Part shown: positions 17,310-42,675 of the stretch, one piece after another
Position numbering within the stretch: position 1 is the first letter of the stretch
Layout: each line of letters begins with the position of its first letter
Source of the DNA: a virus
Taxonomy: Duplodnaviria > Heunggongvirae > Uroviricota > Caudoviricetes
Virus record (IMG/VR): IMGVR_UViG_2579778807_000004
Length of the DNA: 44,314 nt
Strand: one strand, 5' to 3'
Notes under the pieces: model-generated
Told to the model about the DNA's origin: nothing
What the model saw: only the letters and a program-made list of their open reading frames with translations
The model's database searches: none
Translations under genes and position numbers: made by a program

Positions 17310-17585
17310 TTACTCAATAAAGATCATTGGCTTACCGTTAAAACGTTCATGCCGTGTGACCGTCCATTGTTGTCCGTCATAAACAACGCGATCCCCGCGC
17401 CGTGGGCGGTATCCCGAAGAAAACACCACCAGAGAGACCGCAGGTCCGGACAGAGCATTCAGCTCTGCCAGTGTTTCTCCCGGGATCACAGTCATATCGG
17501 CATCATTAATCGAGGCTGTCTTTCCCATCTTTCTGACCGTGATCGCATCCATACGCGCTGCCAGCCGGGAAAAGGGATCAGACAT
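17310..17585 (-). CDS. Putative head-tail joining / head closure protein (FII-position)
   Basis: Position between capsid-associated genes and Z; 91 aa; sequence not lambda FII. Confidence 0.5.
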   Translation of the reverse strand: MSDPFSRLAARMDAITVRKMGKTASINDADMTVIPGETLAELNALSGPAVSLVVFSSGYRPRRGDRVVYDGQQWTVTRHERFNGKPMIFIE

Positions 17586-17901
17586 TGAGTTTTACCGGCA
17601 CTTCTTCTGCACTGGTTCCGGCATCTGCCCAGACAACCCCGACCAGCGGATCAGAGCCGCTGTTAGTCAGCTGAACTTTTCCGGACTTCAGATAAACCTT
17701 CTTACCCGTTTTCATGTCATCCGTTTTCAGCTTAGACAGCATAAACACACCTTCGGTCATGCCGTCGCCTGTTTCACCCTGTGGAATATCGGTCAGCGCC
17801 ACCGCAAAAACATCACCCACCTGCACCAGATCTCCGCTGCTGATGGCTGCACTGGCAACAATCGCCACCGTTTTTCCTTCTTCTACAAAATTCTTTGCCA
17901 T
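17578..17901 (-). CDS. DUF2190-like capsid-associated protein (possible decoration/cement protein)
   Basis: MAKNFVEEGKTVAIVASAAISSGDLV... pattern; start at internal ATG with GGAGA ribosome-binding site; immediately downstream of the capsid gene. Confidence 0.55.
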   Translation of the reverse strand: MAKNFVEEGKTVAIVASAAISSGDLVQVGDVFAVALTDIPQGETGDGMTEGVFMLSKLKTDDMKTGKKVYLKSGKVQLTNSGSDPLVGVVWADAGTSAEEVPVKLNV

Positions 17902-17987: not shown

Positions 17988-19946
17988 TTACGCCGTACAT
18001 TTCACCAGACCGCGGTGATCAACTGGCGCGACACCGGCGTCAATACGCACTTTCGTTGTCACGCCATCCACACTGAAGCCCTCCATCTGATCAATATATG
18101 GCGTATCCACACCGTTGAGATAAGCCACTTCAATCGTATCGGAGCCTTTTGACGCAGCCAGGTAGAAGGTGGTCTGGCTGTTATCATCAAGACGAGGCTC
18201 TGCAATAACGGTCGCAAAATCTTTCACCGGGTTAATAATACCGGCGTTAATGTCAGCCCCCTTGACACTTGAGGAGCGAATGACCTGGTTAGCAACAGAC
18301 TCCATCGCCGTCGGTACCAGTACGAACGCAGGACGAATATTCAGATGACGCTCCCCCTCTTTCTGAACGCGCATCAACTGGCGGGCTTTATCCAGCGATG
18401 CCACGTCCATTGCAGCGCTCTCCAGTACGTTTGCATGTTTCGCTTTATCGAACAGACTTACATTATCTGTGGAGATTTTCGGGTTAGACGTCAGAATGGC
18501 ATAAACCAGATCGGCAATAGTGGATTTCGCCGCACGGCCCAGCTTCATCGGGACATCGGTCAGCATATTCAGATCATCATTGATAATGGCCTGACGGGTG
18601 ATACTGAACAGCTCGCCATAGGTCGCCAGTGCAATAGTGGCCTGTTTATCTCCGGTGGTGACGTATTTATATTCCGCCCCTTCACGCACCTGACGCAGAG
18701 CACTGAAGCCCCCCATACCCACACGATGGGCAATTTTAAAATCAGACAACTGACCTTTCCGCGTCCACTGTTCATAGGTTTCAGGGGCATCTTCCCAGCC
18801 CTGCAGAATGGCTTTGTTCGCAACATCCAGCAGAATATTACCGAAGTCAGACGTACTGTGTGTGAACGCCGCACCGACCATCTGCATCGGGTTATAACCG
18901 GAAACCCCAATACCCCGTTCAGTCAGTGACATACGGGCATATTCACGCAGGGTCATCCCGTTGTAGACATTATCACGTTCGGTTTTTTCAAATCCGGCAC
19001 GCGCCATCAGCGCCTGGCGGATCCCGTCCCCCACAAAATTACCGTTACCGGCATAAATATGAGCCGGGGTATTTTTATTGGATGGCGTGGACTCGCGCCC
19101 CATCTCGTTCAACAACTTTTCGCGGGCCTGCTCCAGCGAACATTCAGGATCGGCAAGACACTGGGCCTGCAGCGTCTGATAACGCCCGCCAAACATGGCA
19201 AACAGATCATTAATACCGTTTACACGCGCTTTTTGCTCTGCCAGTACCTGCGCACGGATACTGTTTTCATCCACCACGGGTGCTGCTGCCTGCACTGGCG
19301 TCCGGGAGGCTGCAGGTTCATCATCCTGTACGCGTGGAGCACTGTTGCGTGGCGGAGTAATCATGTTTCGAATGGATTCCGGCATCTTTTTAAATTCCTC
19401 TGTACGTTTTGACTGAATACATGCCATTGCCTTAACGGCTGGCGTTACCTGATCAGCAAATCCATGTGCCAGACATTCGGCACCGGACATCCAGGTCTCA
19501 TCCGCCAGCATGGCAGCAATTTCATCGGTGGTTTTCCCGGTTTTCTGTGCATAAGCGGGTAACAGAACCGCCTCAACTTTATCGAGCAGGTCGGCATAGG
19601 TGCGCATGTCCTCCGCATCACCGCCCGTAAAGCCAAATGGTTTATGAATCATCATGAAGGTGTTTTCCGGCATAATGACCGGGGTTCCCACCATCGCAAT
19701 GACCGACGCCATTGACGCCGCCACACCGTCGACATAAACGGTAATGGACGCACCATGTGTTTTCAGCGCATTAAAAATGGCGATGCCTTCAAAGACATCG
19801 CCACCCGGTGAATTAATATGGAGATTAATGTGGGTGATATCGCCCAGTGCATTCAGATCACTGATAAACTGCTTCGCTGTAACACCCCAGAAACCAATCT
19901 CGTCATAAATATAAATATCCGCGTCACTCTGGTGACCAGCCTGCAT
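17988..19946 (-). CDS. Prohead protease (ClpP-like) / scaffold / major capsid protein fusion
   Basis: N-terminal ClpP-like motifs (IYIYDEIGFWG...HINSPGGDVFEG...SMASVI) then Pro/Ala-rich linker, then ~330 aa capsid-like C-terminal region; no separate capsid gene in the head module; start set at Met88 of track ORF because upstream codons overlap the portal gene. Confidence 0.75.
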   Translation of the reverse strand: MQAGHQSDADIYIYDEIGFWGVTAKQFISDLNALGDITHINLHINSPGGDVFEGIAIFNALKTHGASITVYVDGVAASMASVIAMVGTPVIMPENTFMMIHKPFGFTGGDAEDMRTYADLLDKVEAVLLPAYAQKTGKTTDEIAAMLADETWMSGAECLAHGFADQVTPAVKAMACIQSKRTEEFKKMPESIRNMITPPRNSAPRVQDDEPAASRTPVQAAAPVVDENSIRAQVLAEQKARVNGINDLFAMFGGRYQTLQAQCLADPECSLEQAREKLLNEMGRESTPSNKNTPAHIYAGNGNFVGDGIRQALMARAGFEKTERDNVYNGMTLREYARMSLTERGIGVSGYNPMQMVGAAFTHSTSDFGNILLDVANKAILQGWEDAPETYEQWTRKGQLSDFKIAHRVGMGGFSALRQVREGAEYKYVTTGDKQATIALATYGELFSITRQAIINDDLNMLTDVPMKLGRAAKSTIADLVYAILTSNPKISTDNVSLFDKAKHANVLESAAMDVASLDKARQLMRVQKEGERHLNIRPAFVLVPTAMESVANQVIRSSSVKGADINAGIINPVKDFATVIAEPRLDDNSQTTFYLAASKGSDTIEVAYLNGVDTPYIDQMEGFSVDGVTTKVRIDAGVAPVDHRGLVKCTA

Positions 19947-19998
19947 CCTGAACCAGGAATTATTCTTCGGACTGGTCGTCGGTGTGCTGCGGCTCCTG

Positions 19999-21468
19999 TC
20001 ATTTCGTTGCGGCACTGCTGCCTCCTTTATCACTGGCCGGATCGGTATCAAATACCAGATCCAGATTGCGGTTTTCATCAATTTCGGCCTTGCGCCGACG
20101 TTTGACATCATCCGGATTACGACCACCAGCACGTACCCAGTCTGATTCTGTCGCCGCTCCACCACGAATCTGGATTTTCCAGGCCTCAGCCTCCTTAACA
20201 GGGTCAATCCACGGCATCACTGGTCCGGAATACACCGCGGTATACAGTGAAGAACGGTCAAGATCGCGGGGTAGCCTGATAACACCGGATGCCACAGCCT
20301 GTTTCAGCCATGCACGATACATCGGGCGGGTGACGGCACCAATAAACCAGTCCTGCAGGATCAGGTAGCCATCAGTGGATTCAACCAGCTCCTGACGCTG
20401 GGCGCTGTAAGTGCCGTTATAGTTGCGCGCTGTACTGGAAAAACTCAGACGACTGCCCGCCGCCACGGCACGCAACTGACCATTACGAAAAGTTTCAAGG
20501 TTAGGATTGGGGCGATCCGACTTCACCATTCCGATTTCTTCGCCGGGTTTCAGATCGTCGTAAATAATGCCCGGCTGAATGGTAAGCTCACGTTCATTCT
20601 CCTTTCTGCCATTACCATCCGGTTCATAGCTCTGCCCGTCGCCTTTCCGGATGTACATCCCCAGAGCAGCGGCGATCCTTGCTGCAGTCAGCTCAGAATC
20701 TTCATATTCTTTCAGGGCACTGAGGCGGATCAGCACACCGGACAACAAAGACGTCCCGCGCATCTGGTGCAGACGGCGAACAAATTTAAGATGCAGCATT
20801 CGCTCTGCATCCACTTCTTTGGTTTCCATCTGCCGTCCGGATACGGGACGGCTTTTATACACCAGATATTTTTCGGGACGCCCCCAGTCATCAACAAACA
20901 CGCCCTGATTCAGCCTGTTGCTCTCATCACTGGTCATGGGAATAAAGTCCGGCTCGAGCGCCTCCAGCCAGAAATGAACACCGGCAGAAGGCGCCAGGCT
21001 GTTTATGCGCCCGGAAACCATCTGGGCAAACACCTCACCATCGCGCAGCCAGGTACGAAGCATCAGACGTTCCAGCATCGGACGGGTAAACTGCCCGGTG
21101 ACTTCCGGGCTGACAGACCATTCACTCCATCGGGTGCGAATCTCCGCAGCCAGGTCACGGGCAATGGCCCCATTGCGTAATACCGGATGTGGCTCGACAA
21201 TAATCCCGTTTTTCCCCACCACCCGTTCTTCCAGCTTGTCAAATACACCAATAACCAGATCGTGGTTGTTATCAAGGTAACGGGCCTGCTCACGTAACGA
21301 CACGGCCCCGTACTGGCTTAACTGGTCGGCAGTTCGGTTCTCCCGTCGGGCTTTGTGTGTCCGCGTCGTTTTTACGGCCTCATAAGCCTGGATCACCGCA
21401 CGGGAACGCAGCCTTGCCGCTTTCCATCCTGGTGAAAAAACGCCAATCACATCATCAAGAATTGCCAT
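19999..21468 (-). CDS. Portal protein
   Basis: ~490 aa between gpW-like gene and protease/capsid gene; start ATG overlaps gpW-like stop (TGATG). Confidence 0.8.
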   Translation of the reverse strand: MAILDDVIGVFSPGWKAARLRSRAVIQAYEAVKTTRTHKARRENRTADQLSQYGAVSLREQARYLDNNHDLVIGVFDKLEERVVGKNGIIVEPHPVLRNGAIARDLAAEIRTRWSEWSVSPEVTGQFTRPMLERLMLRTWLRDGEVFAQMVSGRINSLAPSAGVHFWLEALEPDFIPMTSDESNRLNQGVFVDDWGRPEKYLVYKSRPVSGRQMETKEVDAERMLHLKFVRRLHQMRGTSLLSGVLIRLSALKEYEDSELTAARIAAALGMYIRKGDGQSYEPDGNGRKENERELTIQPGIIYDDLKPGEEIGMVKSDRPNPNLETFRNGQLRAVAAGSRLSFSSTARNYNGTYSAQRQELVESTDGYLILQDWFIGAVTRPMYRAWLKQAVASGVIRLPRDLDRSSLYTAVYSGPVMPWIDPVKEAEAWKIQIRGGAATESDWVRAGGRNPDDVKRRRKAEIDENRNLDLVFDTDPASDKGGSSAATK

Positions 21469-28546: not shown

Positions 28547-29269
28547 CTAAGAAAATCTTGATAAATATTGGTGCGGAGGCACACCAAAATATCCTCTAAA
28601 AACACTTACAAAATATGATGCATTGTCATACCCGCATATTCCCGCCACCTTGCCGACAGTATGGTTACTGTAGATCAATAATCTTTGCGCCATCATCATT
28701 CGTTCTTCAAGAATTAATTTACTAAACGATAATCCTTCGTCTTTTAATTTTCTTTTTAACAAACTCTCGCTCATATATAATCTTGAAGATATATCACAAA
28801 GTCTCCATGACGCTGAGATATCCGAGTGAATAATAGCCTTAACTTTACAACCTAAGCTATTAAGACTTCCGAACAAAAAACTTTGCACTATTTTCTCTGA
28901 AGATAAGACAGCAAGACATGCAAGTGATATTTGATTTCTAACTACATCCACGGTTTTGCTATCACAATTCAAGCATGCAACCAAGTTCTTTAACAATGAA
29001 AAATCTTCACATTCTACTATCAAGTATGACGGATAAAACCTTCTTACAGAAAAAGGTGAGAGTGTGTAGTTTTTAAAGAAATCATTAACTGTTTTCTCCT
29101 CAACATCTACGATCATTAGATGATCTGTATTTGACGAAAAAAGATCTTTTAAATTGTATTCAATGAGGACAGCATTTCCTTTTTTAAACAAAATATCTTC
29201 TTTACCAATTCGGACACCAAACGAGTTCAACACCAAAATGATAGAACATATGTATGGCATATTATCCAC
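28547..29269 (-). CDS. AraC-family transcriptional regulator (AT-rich cargo gene)
   Basis: C-terminal AraC-type HTH (...GKVAGICGYDNASYFVSVFRGYFGVPPHQY); AT-rich codon usage unlike phage core. Confidence 0.8.
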   Translation of the reverse strand: MDNMPYICSIILVLNSFGVRIGKEDILFKKGNAVLIEYNLKDLFSSNTDHLMIVDVEEKTVNDFFKNYTLSPFSVRRFYPSYLIVECEDFSLLKNLVACLNCDSKTVDVVRNQISLACLAVLSSEKIVQSFLFGSLNSLGCKVKAIIHSDISASWRLCDISSRLYMSESLLKRKLKDEGLSFSKLILEERMMMAQRLLIYSNHTVGKVAGICGYDNASYFVSVFRGYFGVPPHQYLSRFS

Positions 29270-29666
29270 CTGATATCATTGGGGTTACACCAGGTAAGTA
29301 TAGGTGGAAAATCAATATTCGCCAGTTCAACAATAAGGAAAATCTCATTGCATCACAACTATAAAACCATGTGTTTAACTCACAAAAAACAAATCATTAA
29401 ACTAATCTGTTATATTATAATAGCTGCGTGCAATAATAATATTATATGCTCTTAATATTCACTTGAAATATCTTCATATAAAAACAGATTGAATAAAATC
29501 TTTTGGGGCTGGTATGTTTACCAACATTAAATTGCATCTCAATGTTTTCTTTAGCGTGAACAGGATTTTTATACAAACTGACACTATGGGCATCATAGCG
29601 TAGTTTTTACGATTGTAAATATCCTGCATACAGGAACTCATCACTTTCAGATGATATCGCATACAG

Positions 29667-30626
29667 TTAATTCACCATCAGTCTTAGAGCCAGTTCTTCC
29701 GGATAGGGATCGAAGTAATTCTGTGTAAGCAAGTAATCATTAGGATACTCACCCAGATAATGCTTCAGCAGAGTCAACGGCGCAAGAAGAGGCAATGTGC
29801 CAAAGCGATAGTTAAGTATAACCTCGCTCAACTCTTTACGCTGGCGTGTACTTAAGTAATTACTAAAATACCCCTGTATATGCATCAGCACATTCGTGTG
29901 ATTTTTACGTGATGCTGGTTTTCTGAGAATCGCCATCAGATTATCACGATACACCTCAAAGTATGATTCAAGGTCCGCCCACTCGTGTATTGCAGCCACA
30001 AATGGTCCCATATCTTTATAGCCTGCCTGGCTATGCGCCAACAACTGAAGCTTATAACGACTATGAAAAGCTAATAACTCTCTTCTTGATAATTTCTCCT
30101 TGTAAAGATGATTGAGCTCATGCAAAGCAAAAACTCTTTCAATAAAATTCTCACGAAGCACTGGATCATGTAATCGCCCATCCTCTTCAACCGGTAGCCA
30201 GGAAAACTTTTCCATCAAAGTGCTCGTAAATAGTCCCACTCCATCTTTACGACCTCGATTACCATTTTCATCATAGACACGCACGCGCTCCATGCCACAG
30301 CTGGGAGATTTAGCACAAACCACAAACCCCGATACATCCTTTAATTTGTCCATATAAGAACGACTAAACTCTGTCATTCTCTCTGTCACATCCTCATTCT
30401 GGTCGTGGCTGAAACACATCCGTATATTTCCTTGCTTCGAGCGCACAAGTCGTAGAGCAGGACGCGGAACTGGCAGCCCTATAGCCATTTCCGGACATAC
30501 TGGTCTGAATGTTACCCATTCCACTAATTTGTCCATTAAAAAGTCATCTCTTTTGTGACCACCATCAAAACGAACAGCAGAACCGCCCAAACAACCGCTG
30601 ATCCCAATCACAGGTTTTTTTATCAT
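29667..30626 (-). CDS. DUF523/DUF1722 two-domain protein (YbgA-like; N-terminal domain resembles TudS-type Fe-S proteins)
   Basis: 319 aa; N-terminal Cys-containing motifs (ISGCLGG, CPE, CAKSPSCGME) then YbgA-like C-terminal domain; recalled from memory. Confidence 0.55.
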   Translation of the reverse strand: MIKKPVIGISGCLGGSAVRFDGGHKRDDFLMDKLVEWVTFRPVCPEMAIGLPVPRPALRLVRSKQGNIRMCFSHDQNEDVTERMTEFSRSYMDKLKDVSGFVVCAKSPSCGMERVRVYDENGNRGRKDGVGLFTSTLMEKFSWLPVEEDGRLHDPVLRENFIERVFALHELNHLYKEKLSRRELLAFHSRYKLQLLAHSQAGYKDMGPFVAAIHEWADLESYFEVYRDNLMAILRKPASRKNHTNVLMHIQGYFSNYLSTRQRKELSEVILNYRFGTLPLLAPLTLLKHYLGEYPNDYLLTQNYFDPYPEELALRLMVN

Positions 30627-33925: not shown

Positions 33926-34155
33926 AGCCTGCTTCTCCTTGCCTTTCGGCACGTAAGAGGCTAACCTACATGTGTCTAGCATGAAATTGGCCTCAGATTA
34001 ATGTTAAGCGTCTTGCAGGACGCGTAATGTTAACTGGGGCTTTTCTCTATCTGCCTTTGGTGTTCATGCCTGAGACAGATAGCCTCAAGCACCCACGGAA
34101 ACTTTACTAAAGGAGTTATAGCTTTTCCAGTAGTCTCAACATATTCACATTGCTA

Positions 34156-35712
34156 TTACCTATCAAACAACGGATGTATTACAAAATCTCTCTTCATATC
34201 AGTAATATCCAAATTAGGTTTATCAAAAGATGAATATATAATTAAAGATGCTGTTTTCCTTATGCCAACCACGCCTACGACGAACCAGACTTTAAGTAAC
34301 TCCTCAAAATTCATCAATATTTTTGTATGTTGATCATCCTCTTTAACTACAGTCAATCTATCAAGTAAATGCTGCGATATATCATCTTTTACTGCTTGTC
34401 CTATGTTTGAGACTGTAAAATCAGAAAATGAAATCAAGGAAAGCACATCCAAATATTCTTCGATAAACGGATATATGCTTTTCCATTCTGTAACCAAAGC
34501 TCTCTTTCTGGACGAATAAAATTTCTCTTCGGCAATTAACACAATATTTTCATTCATGTTAACCATACCATCGCACTCAGAAAGACATATATTTACGAAA
34601 TTAATTGCATCTCTAGGCCTAAGCATTGTTCTGTCAAGGATATAATCATCTGCTCCAATACCTTCAACTGTAAAATTAAAAATATCCTTCATTAATACAG
34701 ACTTATTTGATTGATATCTATTTTTAACCAAATGGTTAATTCTAGCATCAATAATCTCTCTTATTTCCGTTTTATTCCATGATATGGAATATATTAAAGA
34801 TTGATCTTTCTCATCCTGCCTTAAACTACTTTTATAAATTCCCATTAAAATATCTGTTCTTATTGATATCAGAACCTTAACCGACTTTATATCTAATAAT
34901 TCTCGAAAGGCCTCAAGAAGAGCATTAATAAAGTCATATCTGATGGCGCTCGTGCTTAACCAAGATTTATCTAAATCATCGATACTGATTACTATTCTAA
35001 CCTGGTTTGAGTCAGCGAACTCCTCTTTAAGTATTTTAATAAGTTCTTTTTGTTTAAAAAGAAGTTCACGACTCACATAACTTGAAGTTTCTGATTGTAT
35101 TTTGGCTGTATCAGAATTAGATATTTTACCACCCACACCAACAGCGGAATTTCCGAGTTTGAATGACAAATCACTTTCAAGCTTGTTACTTATTTCAATG
35201 AGCGCTTTATCATTGAAGAAATTTTCTTTAAATTGTTCAATATAATCATTCGCAACTTCTGGTTTATACGGTTTCTTCTTACCACCAATAAGATCTTTAA
35301 TTTCCTCAAAAAAGCTTTGATAGGAAGAACGATAAACGGCTGGTATAACTTTCATAAGTAATACATGCAGCCATAACGATTTATAAAACCCACGTAAATC
35401 TATCCCTTTCGAGATCAAATCAGATATAAACACATTGTTATTAATATGTTCAAATATCGTATTTTCTGCCTCTATTGTGTCATGCAGCTTAATATTTCCT
35501 TTGTCTAATATTTTTTTAAGCAACGCAGACTTACCGCTTCCTGTTCTTCCAACAATAATTCTTCTTGTAAAATCAGGATTCTTCTCAGTAGAGTCAAAAT
35601 TCACAATACCTTTAAAAACATTGGACTCATAAAAACAAGCATCAAGATAAGAATCAGTTTCCGCCTCTAATTTTCCAATCTCATCATTATTTCTGAATTT
35701 ATAGGCATTCAT
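34156..35712 (-). CDS. P-loop NTPase of unknown family in an AT-rich island; candidate standalone anti-phage defence / abortive-infection protein
   Basis: Walker A IVGRTGSGKSALLKKI near N-terminus; Walker B-like VRIVISIDDLDKSW ~185 aa later; Arg-containing motif RTMLRPRD; strikingly AT-rich versus flanking phage genes; occupies the relBE-equivalent hotspot. Confidence 0.7.
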   Translation of the reverse strand: MNAYKFRNNDEIGKLEAETDSYLDACFYESNVFKGIVNFDSTEKNPDFTRRIIVGRTGSGKSALLKKILDKGNIKLHDTIEAENTIFEHINNNVFISDLISKGIDLRGFYKSLWLHVLLMKVIPAVYRSSYQSFFEEIKDLIGGKKKPYKPEVANDYIEQFKENFFNDKALIEISNKLESDLSFKLGNSAVGVGGKISNSDTAKIQSETSSYVSRELLFKQKELIKILKEEFADSNQVRIVISIDDLDKSWLSTSAIRYDFINALLEAFRELLDIKSVKVLISIRTDILMGIYKSSLRQDEKDQSLIYSISWNKTEIREIIDARINHLVKNRYQSNKSVLMKDIFNFTVEGIGADDYILDRTMLRPRDAINFVNICLSECDGMVNMNENIVLIAEEKFYSSRKRALVTEWKSIYPFIEEYLDVLSLISFSDFTVSNIGQAVKDDISQHLLDRLTVVKEDDQHTKILMNFEELLKVWFVVGVVGIRKTASLIIYSSFDKPNLDITDMKRDFVIHPLFDR

Positions 35713-35961
35713 TGAACAAAAGCTCCATGCTATCTGTAGTTTGGTTTTTAATTATAAAAACATTTTATTAACAATTCCACTAAATTGAAACATAATGACA
35801 ACATGAAACAAAACGTTAGAGGTCAGTTGGCATCAATTGCTCTACCTAAGCTCTGTTACCGACTCCCCGACTACTCCCCAAAATTTTTTGTCTCTGGTAT
35901 CCGTTGCTGTTCCGGCGACATTCCTGCGCCGCAGCCTGTTTCGACGCTGTTGACCTTTCGG

Positions 35962-36174
35962 TTACCGCTTTTGCAATGCAGATTTTTCCTGCCAGTTCGG
36001 TACCAGCCGATATTTTTTCCCCTCCCGCACAAGCTGCCCGTACCGCTGTATGTTCTGGAGCAGGTTTTGAATTTTCTTGTTGGTCACACCAAGAGCATCA
36101 GCCAGCTCCCGGAACGTGGCTTCCCCGTTCTCCAGCAAATGCTGGATTGCGGCCTGTTGATTACTGCTGTGCAT
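35962..36174 (-). CDS. Small winged-helix DNA-binding protein (70 aa), possibly a truncated replication-gene remnant or regulator
   Basis: HTH-like segment ATFRELADALGVTNKKIQNLLQNI; translationally adjacent to the O-like gene; phage-like GC content. Confidence 0.45.
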   Translation of the reverse strand: MHSSNQQAAIQHLLENGEATFRELADALGVTNKKIQNLLQNIQRYGQLVREGKKYRLVPNWQEKSALQKR

Positions 36175-36176
36175 AC

Positions 36177-37142
36177 CTACCCCCTGAATCCCGGTGGAAT
36201 TTCGCTGTCCGGCTCAGAAATATGATTCACACAACGCTGTACAGGTGAACGCCCCAGGCGAATGACCAGTTCATCCCATTTTTCGCGGAGCTTTGAAGGG
36301 CTCATGATGTTTTTTACCCAGAATGGATCTCGCTGAACCCGACCAAACATTTCGCAAATTTGTTTATGGCTTCTGCCATCCAGCATCCGCATTGTGCGCA
36401 CGTCATTAGCCCAGGCAGTCCAGTTAGGCTCTTTTGGTCGCATGATCTCGCCATCATCACTGGCGGCCTGTTCGTAAAGGCTCACGATTCGTGCCCAGAT
36501 CCATTGCGCACACGCCAAATCCTCCTGATTCCCCCACTGACGTTTTTTAGCACTGAAAACCACCGCGTCAGGATATTGGGTTAAATAATTCTGTTCAGCT
36601 GTCTGCGGGTCCGATTGCGAAGCTTCCGGACGAAAAGTGTTTTTATTCTCTGTAGTAATCTCTGTTGTATTCTCTGTAAGATCATCAGGCCATTTTGACC
36701 CGATGACATTGGGTCGTTTTGAACCAATGGAGCGTTTCATTTTGACCTCTTCCATCGTGTCATTTTGACCTGATGGAGCGGCGCATTTTGAACCGATGGA
36801 TTCGCTCAATTTGCCATCATCTAAAAGCTCGCTCCCATAGTTAATCGTGTAGAAATTGGTCATATCGCGCTTTGATTTATTGAGCTTTTCACAACGCAAA
36901 AGCCCCAGCGTTTTCAGACTTGCAAACGCGCGCTTTAACGTTGACTCTGACCAGAATGGGAACTGTTCCAGCCATTGTTCCGTTGTGTTGTAAATCCAGC
37001 GAACACCATCACATTCCATGCCGGAATTGGTATCTCTCAACCAGTAATGCAACTGCTGCAACACAATGGCTTCATTTAAGCCAATCTTCATCGCAAGCTG
37101 TGTGTTTATAACCAGTGGGCGTTCAGCAAAAAGAAGGCTCAT
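36177..37142 (-). CDS. Replication initiation protein (lambda O-like N-terminal replisome-organizer domain, divergent C-terminus)
   Basis: N-terminal region resembles lambda O DNA-binding domain; position downstream of cro/cII-like genes; start set at internal Met (track 37196). Confidence 0.6.
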   Translation of the reverse strand: MSLLFAERPLVINTQLAMKIGLNEAIVLQQLHYWLRDTNSGMECDGVRWIYNTTEQWLEQFPFWSESTLKRAFASLKTLGLLRCEKLNKSKRDMTNFYTINYGSELLDDGKLSESIGSKCAAPSGQNDTMEEVKMKRSIGSKRPNVIGSKWPDDLTENTTEITTENKNTFRPEASQSDPQTAEQNYLTQYPDAVVFSAKKRQWGNQEDLACAQWIWARIVSLYEQAASDDGEIMRPKEPNWTAWANDVRTMRMLDGRSHKQICEMFGRVQRDPFWVKNIMSPSKLREKWDELVIRLGRSPVQRCVNHISEPDSEIPPGFRG

Positions 37143-37644
37143 AATTCCATCCAGCTTTTTGTTGGTATTGCTGTCGATACGCAAGTTTGAAAGCAATTGC
37201 TTTTTCTATAAGTTCGTCAGTTTCACGATCCACTACGGCAGGATCAGCAAAAAGCAGTCCGGACTCCACCACATCGCCATATTCTTTGTTTAACCCGGCG
37301 ATCATGTACGTGATGCTTTTTCCGTCACTAATTTCACGATACAACCTGAAATCATTAATCCGGATAGCCTCCATAATTGCAGGCACTAGCGCCGTGAACT
37401 TTTCACGCTTATCCCTGGTGTCGATAGCCTTCCAGCGTTCGAATATCTTCACTCGATTAACGCCAAGCGCTCGCTGATCAACCGCGCCACCTTCATCTGT
37501 GACACGCTGAACATCGATGTTCGGGCGCTCTTTCAAAGCCCAGAATGCTTCAGTGATTAATATCGTCGCCTGCTCCTGTGTCATTCCTGGTCGACATATC
37601 CAAGCATCCAGAGCCTCACGAGCCTGTTCAGGAGTGATTTTCAT
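37123..37644 (-). CDS. Hypothetical protein at the cII position (possibly YdaT/CII-like regulator)
   Basis: 173-aa ORF translationally coupled downstream of the cro-like gene; family not confidently recognised. Confidence 0.4.
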   Translation of the reverse strand: MKITPEQAREALDAWICRPGMTQEQATILITEAFWALKERPNIDVQRVTDEGGAVDQRALGVNRVKIFERWKAIDTRDKREKFTALVPAIMEAIRINDFRLYREISDGKSITYMIAGLNKEYGDVVESGLLFADPAVVDRETDELIEKAIAFKLAYRQQYQQKAGWNYEPSFC

Positions 37645-40203: not shown

Positions 40204-42675
40204 ATGAGTAAAGTCTTTATTTGCGCCGCTATTCCTGACGAACTGGCAACAAGGGAAGAAGGCGCTGTGGCTGTAGCCACAGCCATTGAAGCTGGCGACG
40301 AACGCCGTGCTCGAGCAAAATTTCACTGGCAGTTCCTGGAACATTATACGGCTGCTCAGGACTGCGCTTATAAATTTATTGTCTGCGAGGATAAACCTGG
40401 CATACCTCGCCCTGCCCTCGATTCATGGGATGCTGAATATATGCAGGAAAACCGCTGGGATGAGGAGTCTGCTTCTTTTGTCCCGGTTGAGACTAAATCC
40501 GATCCGATGAACGTCACTTTTGACAAGCTGGCCCCTGAAGTACAGAACGCTGTCATGGTTAAGTTCGACACATGTGAAAACATCACCGTTGATATGGTTA
40601 TTAGCGCACAGGAATTGTTGCAGGAAGACATGGCAACATTCGACGGACATATCGTTGAAGCGTTGATGAAAATGCCAGAAGTTAACGCCATGTATCCGGA
40701 GCTTAAGTTGCACGCCATTGGGTGGGTTAAGCATAAATGTATTCCTGGTGCTAAATGGCCCGAAATTCAGGCAGAGATGCGCATCTGGAAAAAACGTCGC
40801 GAAGGTGAACGCAAGGAAACCGGAAAATACACGTCTGTTGTTGATCTCGCCCGCACCAGAGCCAATCAACAGTACACTGAAAATTCAACAGGAAAAATCA
40901 GCCCGGTCATTGCTGCCATTCATCGCGAATACAAGCAGACATGGAAAACACTGGATGACGAACTGGCCTACGCTCTCTGGCCTGGTGATGTGGATGCCGG
41001 AAACATTGACGGCAGCATCCATCGCTGGGCAAAAAAAGAAGTTATCGACAACGACCGCGAAGACTGGAAGCGTATCTCGGCATCAATGCGCAAACAGCCT
41101 GATGCCCTTCGCTACGACCGCCAAACTATTTTTGGCCTTGTCCGTGAGCGTCCGATCGACATTCACAAAGAACCCGTAGCACTGAACAAATATATCTGCG
41201 AATACCTGACGACAAAGGGCGTGTTTGAGAATGAAGAAACAGACCTGGGCACTGTTGATGTTCTCCAGTCATCAGAAACACAAACTGATGCAGTGGAAAC
41301 TGAGGTATCTGATATCCCAAAAAATGAAACCGCGCCGGAAGCTGAACCATCTGTAGAGCGTGAGGGGCCGTTCTATTTCCTCTTCGCAGATAAGGACGGA
41401 GAAAAATACGGTCGCGCAAACAAACTTTCTGGTCTGGATAAGGCACTGGCTGCTGGCGCCACTGAAATCACTAAAGAAGAATATTTTGCCCGAAAAAATG
41501 GCACATACACGGGCTTACCGCAAAATGTAGATACCGCTGAAGATTCAGAACAACCAGAACCGATAAAAGTTACCGCTGACGAAGTAAACAAAATTATGCA
41601 GGCAGCCAATATCAGCCAGCCTGACGCCGATAAGTTGCTTGCTGCATCACGTGGTGAATTTGTTGAAGGGATTAGTGACCCGAATGATCCGAAATGGGTT
41701 AAGGGGATCCAGACCCGCGATTCTGTGAACCAGAACCAGCATGAATCGGAACGGAACTACCAAAAAGCGGAACAAAACAGCCCAAATGCGTTACAAAACG
41801 AGCCAGAAACGAAACAGCCTGAACCAGTGGCGCAACAGGAAGTGGAAAAAGTCTGCACCGCCTGCGGTCAGACCGGCGGCGGCAACTGCCCTGATTGTGG
41901 CGCGGTGATGGGCGACGCAACATACCAGGAAACATTCGATGAAGAGTATCAGGTTGAAGTTCAGGAAGATGATCCGAAGGAAATGGAAGGCGCTGAACAT
42001 CCACACAAGGGGAACACTGGCGGCAATCAGCATCACGATAGCGATAATGAAACTGGCGAGACGGCAGATCACTCAATTAAGGTGAACGGTCATCACGAAA
42101 TCACATCCACCAGCAGGACGTGTGACCATCTAATGATCGACCTTGAAACCATGGGAAAAAATCCTGATGCCCCGATCATCTCAATAGGTGCAATATTTTT
42201 CGATCCGCAAACCGGAGATATGGGACCGGAATTTAGTAAGACTATCGATCTGGAAACTGCTGGCGGAGTCATTGATCGGGACACCATTAAATGGTGGCTT
42301 AAGCAATCACGCGAAGCGCAATCTGCCATTATGACCGATGAAATCCCGTTAGATGATGCACTGTTACAATTGCGGGAATTTATCGACGAAAACTCCGGTG
42401 AATTTTTTGTTCAGGTCTGGGGAAATGGAGCCAACTTCGACAACACGATTTTGCGCCGTTCATACGAACGGCAGGGGATCCCCTGCCCGTGGCGTTACTA
42501 CAACGATCGCGATGTACGCACAATCGTTGAGCTGGGGAAAGCCATAGACTTCGATGCCAGAACGGCTATTCCATTCGAAGGTGAGCGCCATAATGCACTT
42601 GATGACGCCCGTTACCAGGCAAAATACGTTTCAGTTATCTGGCAAAAACTGATCCCGAGTCAGGCTGATTCTTAA
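40204..42675 (+). CDS. Large early-region protein with C-terminal DEDDh (DnaQ-like) 3'-5' exonuclease domain and a Cys4 zinc ribbon; intact YdfE-like
   Basis: C-terminal motifs MIDLETMG, WGNGANFD and HNALDDARY; zinc ribbon CTACGQTGGGNCPDCG; N-terminus resembles remembered K-12 YdfE. Confidence 0.7.
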   Translation: MSKVFICAAIPDELATREEGAVAVATAIEAGDERRARAKFHWQFLEHYTAAQDCAYKFIVCEDKPGIPRPALDSWDAEYMQENRWDEESASFVPVETKSDPMNVTFDKLAPEVQNAVMVKFDTCENITVDMVISAQELLQEDMATFDGHIVEALMKMPEVNAMYPELKLHAIGWVKHKCIPGAKWPEIQAEMRIWKKRREGERKETGKYTSVVDLARTRANQQYTENSTGKISPVIAAIHREYKQTWKTLDDELAYALWPGDVDAGNIDGSIHRWAKKEVIDNDREDWKRISASMRKQPDALRYDRQTIFGLVRERPIDIHKEPVALNKYICEYLTTKGVFENEETDLGTVDVLQSSETQTDAVETEVSDIPKNETAPEAEPSVEREGPFYFLFADKDGEKYGRANKLSGLDKALAAGATEITKEEYFARKNGTYTGLPQNVDTAEDSEQPEPIKVTADEVNKIMQAANISQPDADKLLAASRGEFVEGISDPNDPKWVKGIQTRDSVNQNQHESERNYQKAEQNSPNALQNEPETKQPEPVAQQEVEKVCTACGQTGGGNCPDCGAVMGDATYQETFDEEYQVEVQEDDPKEMEGAEHPHKGNTGGNQHHDSDNETGETADHSIKVNGHHEITSTSRTCDHLMIDLETMGKNPDAPIISIGAIFFDPQTGDMGPEFSKTIDLETAGGVIDRDTIKWWLKQSREAQSAIMTDEIPLDDALLQLREFIDENSGEFFVQVWGNGANFDNTILRRSYERQGIPCPWRYYNDRDVRTIVELGKAIDFDARTAIPFEGERHNALDDARYQAKYVSVIWQKLIPSQADS

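Follow-up and report, generated by a model that had tools for sequence, protein, structure and literature searches.

A protease-scaffold-capsid fusion gene of the Gifsy-2 type in a lambdoid prophage and its probable internal translation start

In phage lambda (genes C and Nu3) and phage Mu (genes I and Z), the head protease and the scaffold share one reading frame, and a proven internal start gives a shorter and commoner scaffold that corresponds to the tail of the protease chain. This nesting is established; PMC8508860 cites Shaw & Murialdo 1980 for it. The capsid of Gifsy-2 is reportedly a T=7 shell, which Effantin et al. (2010, Virology 402:355) are said to have fitted with the HK97 capsid fold and with gpD-like trimers. 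The head gene of Gifsy-2 is called a 'tripartite capsid gene' in a later source, which cites 2010 work (PMC12315714), and according to another source the three-fold axes of the Gifsy-2 capsid bear trimers of a cement protein (PMC8538268). The same layout of protease, scaffold and capsid in one gene is found in gp5 (693 aa) of Pseudomonas phage MD8 (PMC8508860). Here we describe such a gene on the minus strand of the IMG/VR virus record IMGVR_UViG_2579778807_000004 (44,314 nt; "the window" denotes this whole stretch of DNA). It is a 'tripartite capsid gene' of the Gifsy-2 type, carried by a lambdoid prophage that resembles mEp460 and cdtI; the arrangement has already been described, belongs to a curated family and is very common. 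While the gene itself is known, a conserved internal start at its protease/linker junction is a new lead, and the gene probably encodes a second, protease-free product in addition to the full-length fusion.

A preliminary description of this locus, made from the sequence, had proposed a single open reading frame (ORF) that starts with a ClpP-like protease domain, continues through a Pro/Ala-rich linker and ends in a capsid-like domain. All of these parts were recovered in one uninterrupted frame, with Pfam CLP_protease covering residues 31-191 and Phage_capsid_4 covering residues 377-672 (residues are numbered on the 675-aa product from GTG 20015). The three-part content of the gene is far beyond chance, and we regard it as close to certain that a ClpP-like serine prohead protease, a scaffold-like linker and a major capsid protein with the HK97 fold together make up the product of this one frame. 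The protease domain scores 214.8 bits against the NCBIfam model Clp_rel_HeadMat ('head maturation protease, ClpP-related') and matches solved ClpP structures at E 3e-16, with the catalytic serine (AASMAS) and histidine (MIHKP) in register. In an alignment of 133 sequences (the query and 132 diverged representatives), the catalytic Ser101 is conserved in 131 and His124 in 132, and position 173, which is Glu173 in the window protein, carries an acidic residue (E/D) in 126. The linker (residues 220-247) is rich in Pro and Ala, is predicted to be disordered and varies in both length and sequence across the alignments. The scaffold-like segment behind it is modelled as three helices (residues 250-273, 280-288 and 294-308) with a predicted local distance difference test score (pLDDT) of 82-94, and its Arg264 is invariant across both of the fusion families described below. 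An indel relative to Gifsy-2 falls within the flexible segment that follows (residues 310-325), which is a candidate region for the maturation cleavage that would free the capsid domain.

The capsid core matches Phage_capsid_4 at E 1.8e-54 and, more weakly, Mu-like_gpT at E 4.8e-8, and the domain is nearest to Mu gpT-like proteins. Sequence searches of solved structures gave only weak matches for this half of the protein (the Mu GpT-domain capsids 8rkx and 8rkc at E 3e-4 and 9jod at E 0.012), and the fold was therefore examined by modelling. Because a model of the full-length protein returned only ClpP chains among the 50 Foldseek matches listed, the search was rerun with a model of residues 211-675. 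This AlphaFold2 model, built with 101 homologues, has a pLDDT of 81 (mostly 85-95 in the capsid domain) and a predicted template modelling score (pTM) of 0.68. Its best 50 Foldseek matches in the Protein Data Bank are all HK97-fold shell proteins, with probability 1.0 and E values of 3e-9 to 6e-8; the shells matched include encapsulins, HK97 Head II (2ft1), T5 (5tjt), SaPI1/80alpha (8vd4), phiXacJX1, LME-1 and SU10. Identity in these structural alignments is only ~12-14%. By its predicted structure, the C-terminal half has the HK97 fold, in agreement with the preliminary description. That description had also stated that the head module has no separate capsid gene, and this holds as well: no second capsid-family match was found when 24 larger window ORFs were searched with Pfam, a set with all ORFs from the small terminase subunit through to the tail. 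These ORFs comprise terminase, portal, cement, head-tail, lambda-like tail, tail fibre, Lom, integrase and cargo genes. The order in the head module is portal, fusion gene, DUF2190 cement gene and Gifsy-2-family head-tail gene, with no other capsid match among them.

The strand of the gene, previously unstated, is minus. The stop-free frame runs from 20207 to 17988 and has 739 codons when counted mechanically from a TTG, and its first 64 codons lie within the portal gene, which ends at 19999. The preliminary description had chosen ATG 19946, giving about 650 aa (652 aa when translated), and had called this start uncertain on account of a weak ribosome-binding site. Its doubt was justified, as the duplex with the anti-Shine-Dalgarno sequence amounts to only -2.7 kcal/mol at this ATG, and the length has to be revised to 675 aa. 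GTG 20015 is the sole start in the frame with a strong ribosome-binding site (-11.6 kcal/mol), and the AAGGAGG in front of it is the only 7-mer Shine-Dalgarno (SD) sequence in the frame. The start assigned by PGAP in a 100%-identical copy from E. coli H8 (WP_077777969.1) is the same GTG. Because of this strong SD and the same PGAP start in the identical copy, we place the gene at 17988..20015, and most likely it starts at GTG 20015 rather than at ATG 19946. The portal and fusion genes share 17 nt, the last of the former and the first of the latter, and this overlap suggests that their translation is coupled.

Annotation of this region varies among public records. Several phage records have a wrong start codon for the fusion gene, and the record of phage Tritos starts it ~96 nt too far upstream, within the portal gene. 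At least ten database entries (P0005, P0007, P0009-P0014, P0016 and P0017) contain ORFs of 1158-1159 aa in which portal, protease, scaffold and capsid form one frame. In P0005, the sole such entry inspected, the portal/fusion junction (KGGSSAQRNDRS) has lost one base in GCCG within the 17-nt overlap at 19999..20015. These portal-fused ORFs may stem from sequencing errors or from dead prophages, or they may represent a genuine variant. In a partial entry of 713 aa from E. coli (P0002), the stretch of the fusion protein from residue ~184 to ~368 is duplicated in tandem; the entry comes from a 2.3-kb contig, and the duplication is probably an assembly artefact.

The window protein belongs to the curated NCBIfam family NF045540 (scaf_prot_MCP1), named 'ClpP-like prohead protease/major capsid protein fusion protein'. 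It scores 984.2 bits against a cutoff of 475, with residues 32-674 aligned to positions 2-651 of the 652-position profile. The family also has members in phages mEp460, cdtI, Ayreon, Tritos and VT1-Sakai and includes MD8 gp5. The E. coli H8 copy, identical in DNA, carries this name, as do the E. coli genome copies listed. DNA of the gene is present in 2125 of 5426 complete E. coli genomes, with at least 99% identity in 1455 records, and 2017 complete E. coli genomes carry the fused frame with a coverage of at least 80%. As a named and abundant family, the arrangement cannot count as unusual. The head-region DNA is 98.4-99.3% identical to that of the isolated phages mEp460, cdtI, Ayreon, Tritos and others, and the DNA of the VT1-Sakai/Stx-phage group is ~76% identical to the window gene. 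At the protein level, the Gifsy-2 product shares 69% identity with the window protein over 668 aa, and fusion proteins of the Pseudomonas group are ~55% identical to it. An exhaustive search of 1.84 billion representative proteins turned up full-length fusions with identities as low as 36%, and these fall into well over 100 distinct clusters at the 50%-identity level. Since so many divergent clusters hold full-length fusions, the fusion is old and widespread and not an artefact.

In phage records of GenBank, the identical gene is named 'head-tail preconnector protease C', 'head-tail preconnector protein Nu3' or 'putative protease/scaffold protein', and also 'head maturation protease', 'Major head protein' or 'Clp protease'.

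A second curated family, NF045541 (scaf_prot_MCP2), has a homologous linker and capsid part behind an unrelated U35/HK97-type protease. The window protein scores 401.9 bits against this model, below its cutoff of 525, and only residues 220-672 (linker and capsid) match. From this sequence comparison, protease domains have evidently been swapped at the protease/linker junction during evolution. Our sources for the U35-type family were the locus L005:2329-4422 and the proteins P0241-P0360. Some U35-type heads are on contractile tails, as sheath genes lie downstream in L006-L009.

At the protease/linker junction of the window gene, GAGGA is followed after 10 nt by an in-frame ATG (19400..19383), with a Glu-Glu pair five codons 5' of Met211. 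The SD duplex at this ATG amounts to -6.0 kcal/mol, and a start here would give a scaffold-capsid product of 465 aa and 50.7 kDa. We measured synonymous diversity, taken as codon heterozygosity at conserved residues in 9-codon windows (a measure that is not phylogeny-aware), over 71 distinct coding sequences from enteric and Pseudomonas relatives with 57-100% protein identity. The six lowest-diversity windows of the gene all lie in codons 198-211, where the values are 0.11-0.15 (gene mean 0.38) and make up about the lowest 1% of windows, and the diversity is back at 0.5-0.6 straight after ATG 19385. As a positive control, the portal codons over a true ribosome-binding site dip just as deep: the final codons of the portal gene, which hold the ribosome-binding site of the fusion gene, have a diversity of 0.04-0.15 against a mean of 0.42. 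The pattern of NAGGA, 10-11 nt and ATG is unchanged in enteric, Pseudomonas, Pasteurellaceae, Shewanella and other relatives, while the residue pair encoded over NAGGA varies (EE, ED, QE, KE, KD or QD). The Gifsy-2 junction reads GAGGAG, 10 nt and ATG. We also considered a -1/+1 frameshift at TTT AAA AAG before Met211, and this was rejected; GAACAT, GCCCAC and other sequences replace the hexamer where the SD and the ATG are kept.

We had expected all ClpP-type fusions to share Met211 at a single alignment position, but the alignment did not bear this out. Distant ClpP-type fusions have an ATG with AAGGAG(G) 6-9 nt upstream, located 10-60 residues further into the linker. A ClpP-type fusion profile retrieved 87 diverse fusion loci from GTDB genomes and IMG/VR. 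In 80 of these (92%), the junction contains an ATG with an SD duplex of -5.5 kcal/mol or stronger, compared to 28.5% for equal-sized control windows from the same genes. The distance from the junction ATG to the stop codon is nearly constant in the ClpP-type loci, at about 440-490 codons. Of the 81 U35-type loci, all but one have an SD-preceded ATG at the junction, and the median duplex at these ATGs is -6.6 kcal/mol, against -2.6 kcal/mol at other internal ATGs. In these loci, the SD is found in either of two codon phases (NNA GGA G or NAG GAR), in which different residues are encoded; therefore, selection acts on the nucleotides. In addition, Ralstonia prophage contigs from several samples have a 2-nt deletion in the (GA)n run GAGAGAGG just 5' of the internal ATG, which splits the frame into a protease ORF of 221 aa and, starting exactly at the internal ATG, a scaffold-capsid ORF of 471 aa. 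This unfused variant was found in 10 contigs, including L006:2346-4416 and L007 (Logan DRR667502 and DRR667446), and is 97% identical to the fused L005:2329-4422. A literature search, from which the 2010 Gifsy-2 paper was missing, gave nothing relevant on an internal start in such fusion genes.

Because synonymous diversity is lowest just before ATG 19385 and the combination of SD and ATG recurs in 80 of 87 ClpP-type and 80 of 81 U35-type loci, the gene is probably nested as in lambda C/Nu3, with a long protease-scaffold-capsid product and a 50.7-kDa scaffold-capsid product. We hold the nested-product mechanism to be fairly probable on this conservation. Translation from GTG 20015, coupled to the overlapping portal gene, would yield the 73.5-kDa protease-scaffold-capsid chain, while ribosomes that also start at GAGGA and ATG 19385 would yield the 50.7-kDa chain, which would resemble HK97 gp5 with its delta domain. 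Both chains would co-assemble on the portal via their shared scaffold and capsid parts into a procapsid, which in Gifsy-2 is reportedly T=7, and the long chains would carry the protease inside it. The protease would then remove itself and the scaffold part, with the cut probably near residues 310-325, leaving a capsid protein of ~38 kDa. The shell would expand during DNA packaging and would be stabilised by the downstream DUF2190 cement protein (17578..17901). From the 69% identity to the Gifsy-2 product, we infer that the fusion product matures to a capsid protein of ~35-40 kDa in a T=7 shell. Such a scheme would follow the nesting logic of lambda C/Nu3 and Mu I/Z and continue it through the capsid gene. 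The preliminary description had implied autoproteolytic release of the capsid domain; to have each capsid domain freed by the protease of the same chain may oversimplify matters, as the internal start probably gives a protease-free product. More generally, we think it reasonably likely that both fusion families, Gifsy-2 included, consist of nested genes in which the protease-free scaffold-capsid chain would be the main building block and the full-length chain a minority protease carrier. For the whole explanation, which joins the known fusion identity to a mechanism including the nested second product, our confidence is moderate.

Several points weigh against a second product. About 16% of the in-frame positions in the window gene score as well as the GAGGA site, so the window sequence taken by itself proves nothing about an internal start. 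The SD of the window clade is short (GAGGA, -6.0 kcal/mol) and lies 10 nt from the ATG, and the Met is not in one column across distant ClpP-type fusions, which carry A, V, I, T or P at position 211. The internal product is deduced solely from sequence conservation. Where several junction ATGs were present, the best-scoring one was taken, which gives a slight bias toward an internal start, and the loci are phylogenetically related, so that P-values are inflated and the independence of the loci is overstated. The unfused Ralstonia variants may be decaying prophages. These points leave room for a single product, in which all subunits are made as a 73.5-kDa polyprotein and the ~415 protease domains of a T=7 procapsid are trimmed after assembly; the SD-like sequence and the Met at the junction would then be a translational pause, a protein motif, a cleavage site or a recombination joint. 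Only a few homologues indeed lack the open, fused frame, F208 and P212, which flank residue 211, are conserved at the protein level, the SD in the window clade is modest and rather far from its ATG, and the literature examined mentions only a single gene. By a rough estimate, ~17 MDa of protease and scaffold would also fit into a T=7 procapsid. However, the constraint at the junction is at the nucleotide and not at the residue level, with frozen synonymous sites, and the U35-type SD in two codon phases encodes different residues. The ATG shifts along the linker in distant relatives and still lies ~450 codons from the stop, the natural unfused variant keeps exactly the same start, and a pause site would need no ATG. 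We consider a single product possible but rather doubtful.

Two other explanations concern the fusion itself. A sequencing error or a recent mutation could have removed a stop codon that separated a protease gene from a capsid gene in a defective prophage, and indels of 1-2 bases do make or break fusions in some assemblies, as in the 1159-aa portal-fused ORFs and the unfused Ralstonia variants. Against such an artefact or decayed gene, the frame is fused in the 2017 complete E. coli genomes, in phages that have been isolated and form plaques (mEp460, cdtI, Ayreon and Tritos), in Gifsy-2, a phage with imaged particles, and in the divergent protein clusters that reach down to 36% identity. This explanation is extremely improbable and is refuted for practical purposes. 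The labels 'protease/scaffold', 'Nu3' and 'Clp protease' in several phage records would suit a gene that encodes protease and scaffold only, with the capsid protein encoded elsewhere. Yet the C-terminal 350 residues match capsid families and have the HK97 fold in the model, the other window ORFs scanned have no capsid-family match, and the gene occupies the capsid position between the portal gene and the cement and head-tail genes, so we give this idea hardly any credence. Among these readings, we favour a nested gene with a full-length fusion and a protease-free scaffold-capsid chain.

Coordinates of the fusion gene, its parts and the adjoining head genes are compiled in Table 1. A DUF2190 cement gene adjoins the fusion gene in Gifsy-2 and in the U35-type loci as well.

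Table 1. The fusion gene, its predicted parts and neighbouring head genes in the window (all on the minus strand).
Feature	Position	Strand	Details
Portal gene, lambda-family	19999..21468	-	Pfam Phage_portal_2, E 8e-82; PGAP coordinates
Main Shine-Dalgarno sequence, AAGGAGG	20021..20027	-	5 nt 5' of GTG 20015..20013; inside the 3' end of the portal gene
Protease-scaffold-capsid fusion coding sequence, complete	17988..20015	-	675 aa, 73.5 kDa; stop codon 17988..17990
ClpP-like (MEROPS S14-type) prohead protease domain	19443..19925	-	Residues 31-191; Pfam CLP_protease, E 2.7e-36
Conserved nucleotide element, protease/linker junction	19383..19424	-	Codons 198-211; GAGGA 19400..19396; ATG (Met211) 19385..19383
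Pro/Ala-rich disordered linker	19275..19358	-	Residues 220-247; pLDDT <50 in both models
Helical scaffold-like (delta-domain-like) segment	19092..19268	-	Residues 250-308
Flexible segment, begins GRESTPSNKNTPAHIY	19041..19088	-	Residues 310-325; pLDDT <50 in both models
HK97-fold major capsid domain	17991..19040	-	Residues ~326-675; Pfam core 377-672
Head decoration/cement protein (DUF2190, 107 aa)	17578..17901	-	Pfam Phage_cement_2, E 1.5e-19; PGAP coding sequence

Next to the cement gene, a 91-aa head-tail gene at 17310..17585 (minus strand) matches Pfam PF13856 ('Gifsy-2', 'ATP-binding sugar transporter from pro-phage') and, weakly, Phage_attach. PGAP names it 'DNA breaking-rejoining protein', and both this name and that of PF13856 look misleading for a gene at the head-tail joining position. 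Farther from the head module, the stretch 34001..36000 has the lowest GC content of the window (0.34, compared to ~0.53 in the structural genes), and the ORF at 34156..35712 (minus strand) encodes a KAP-family P-loop NTPase of 518 aa that looks like prophage cargo and is possibly a defence gene. Non-phage cargo of low GC content is also present at 28547..30626 (minus strand), with an AraC-type regulator (28547..29269) and a 2-thiouracil desulfurase/DUF1722 protein (29667..30626). In the 823-aa ORF at 40204..42675 (plus strand), only the C-terminus is recognisable, as a Rv2179c-like 3'-5' exonuclease, and the product may be a RecE/exonuclease VIII-like recombination protein. A 339-aa ORF at 36177..37196 (minus strand) has no match in Pfam or PADLOC. 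PADLOC gave no matches for six cargo and other non-structural prophage ORFs, the KAP-family NTPase among them.

With regard to the fusion itself, our observation confirms an oddity that annotation pipelines already name, and its practical value lies in the clean-up of annotation, as the same gene is public as 'Nu3', 'protease', 'scaffold', 'ClpP' and 'major capsid protein'. The lead to an internal start matters more. If it is true, it explains how protease and capsid protein can be fused without placing ~415 proteases in every head, and the nested start gives a simple rule for targeting the protease into the shell. Hundreds of prophage lineages would then show the nesting principle of lambda C/Nu3 carried on through the capsid gene.

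Among the described systems, Gifsy-2 (STM1034.3n, NC_010393) has the same order of ClpP-like protease, a middle part of ~200 residues and capsid domain. Its neighbours are also the same, with lambda-type terminase and portal genes upstream, DUF2190 and Gifsy-2-family head-tail genes downstream, and a lambda-like tail. The two proteins differ at 31% of residues, and their N-terminal leaders and Pro/Ala linkers are unrelated in sequence and length. The host and the immunity regions of the two phages differ, and the window gene is known from its sequence alone. The genes of mEp460, cdtI, Ayreon and Tritos show no difference of substance from the window gene. The preliminary description had spoken of an HK97-style head on a lambda-like tail. 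This stands with respect to the HK97 capsid fold and the lambda-like tail genes, but the term is loose for the head as a whole, because it joins a terminase and a portal of the lambda family to a protease of the ClpP type (S14) and not of the HK97 type, a capsid domain that most resembles Mu gpT-like proteins, and a downstream DUF2190 cement gene. The head module is of the Gifsy-2 type.

The NF045541 family, for example in Ralstonia phage YO122_2, is 25-31% identical to the window protein in the linker and capsid part, shares R264 and many capsid residues, and has the same downstream cement gene and the same SD and ATG at the protease/scaffold junction. In contrast, its protease is of the peptidase U35/S78 type and unrelated to the ClpP-type protease of the window. 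The likeness to lambda C/Nu3 and Mu I/Z lies in the hallmarks of an internal start that the window gene carries, which would make it a nested gene of the same kind. The lambda protease is of the S49 type and that of Mu of another type, whereas the window protein reaches only a sub-threshold score against the SppA (S49) model (21.3 bits; cutoff 155), and the capsid protein of both phages (gpE and gpT) is encoded by a separate gene while it is fused in the window. In HK97, the scaffold function resides in an extension at the N-terminus of the HK97-fold capsid protein, which a phage protease cuts off once the shell has assembled. Similarly, the helical segment at residues 250-308 of the window protein directly precedes the HK97-fold domain, as the delta domain does in HK97, and may serve as a scaffold. 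The HK97 protease gp4 is encoded by a separate gene and belongs to the S78 (U35) family, in contrast to the fused, ClpP-like protease of the window. Finally, HK97 has no cement protein and holds its shell together by covalent chainmail (Lys-Asn crosslinks), whereas in the window a cement-protein gene follows the fusion gene, which argues for non-covalent stabilisation of the shell.

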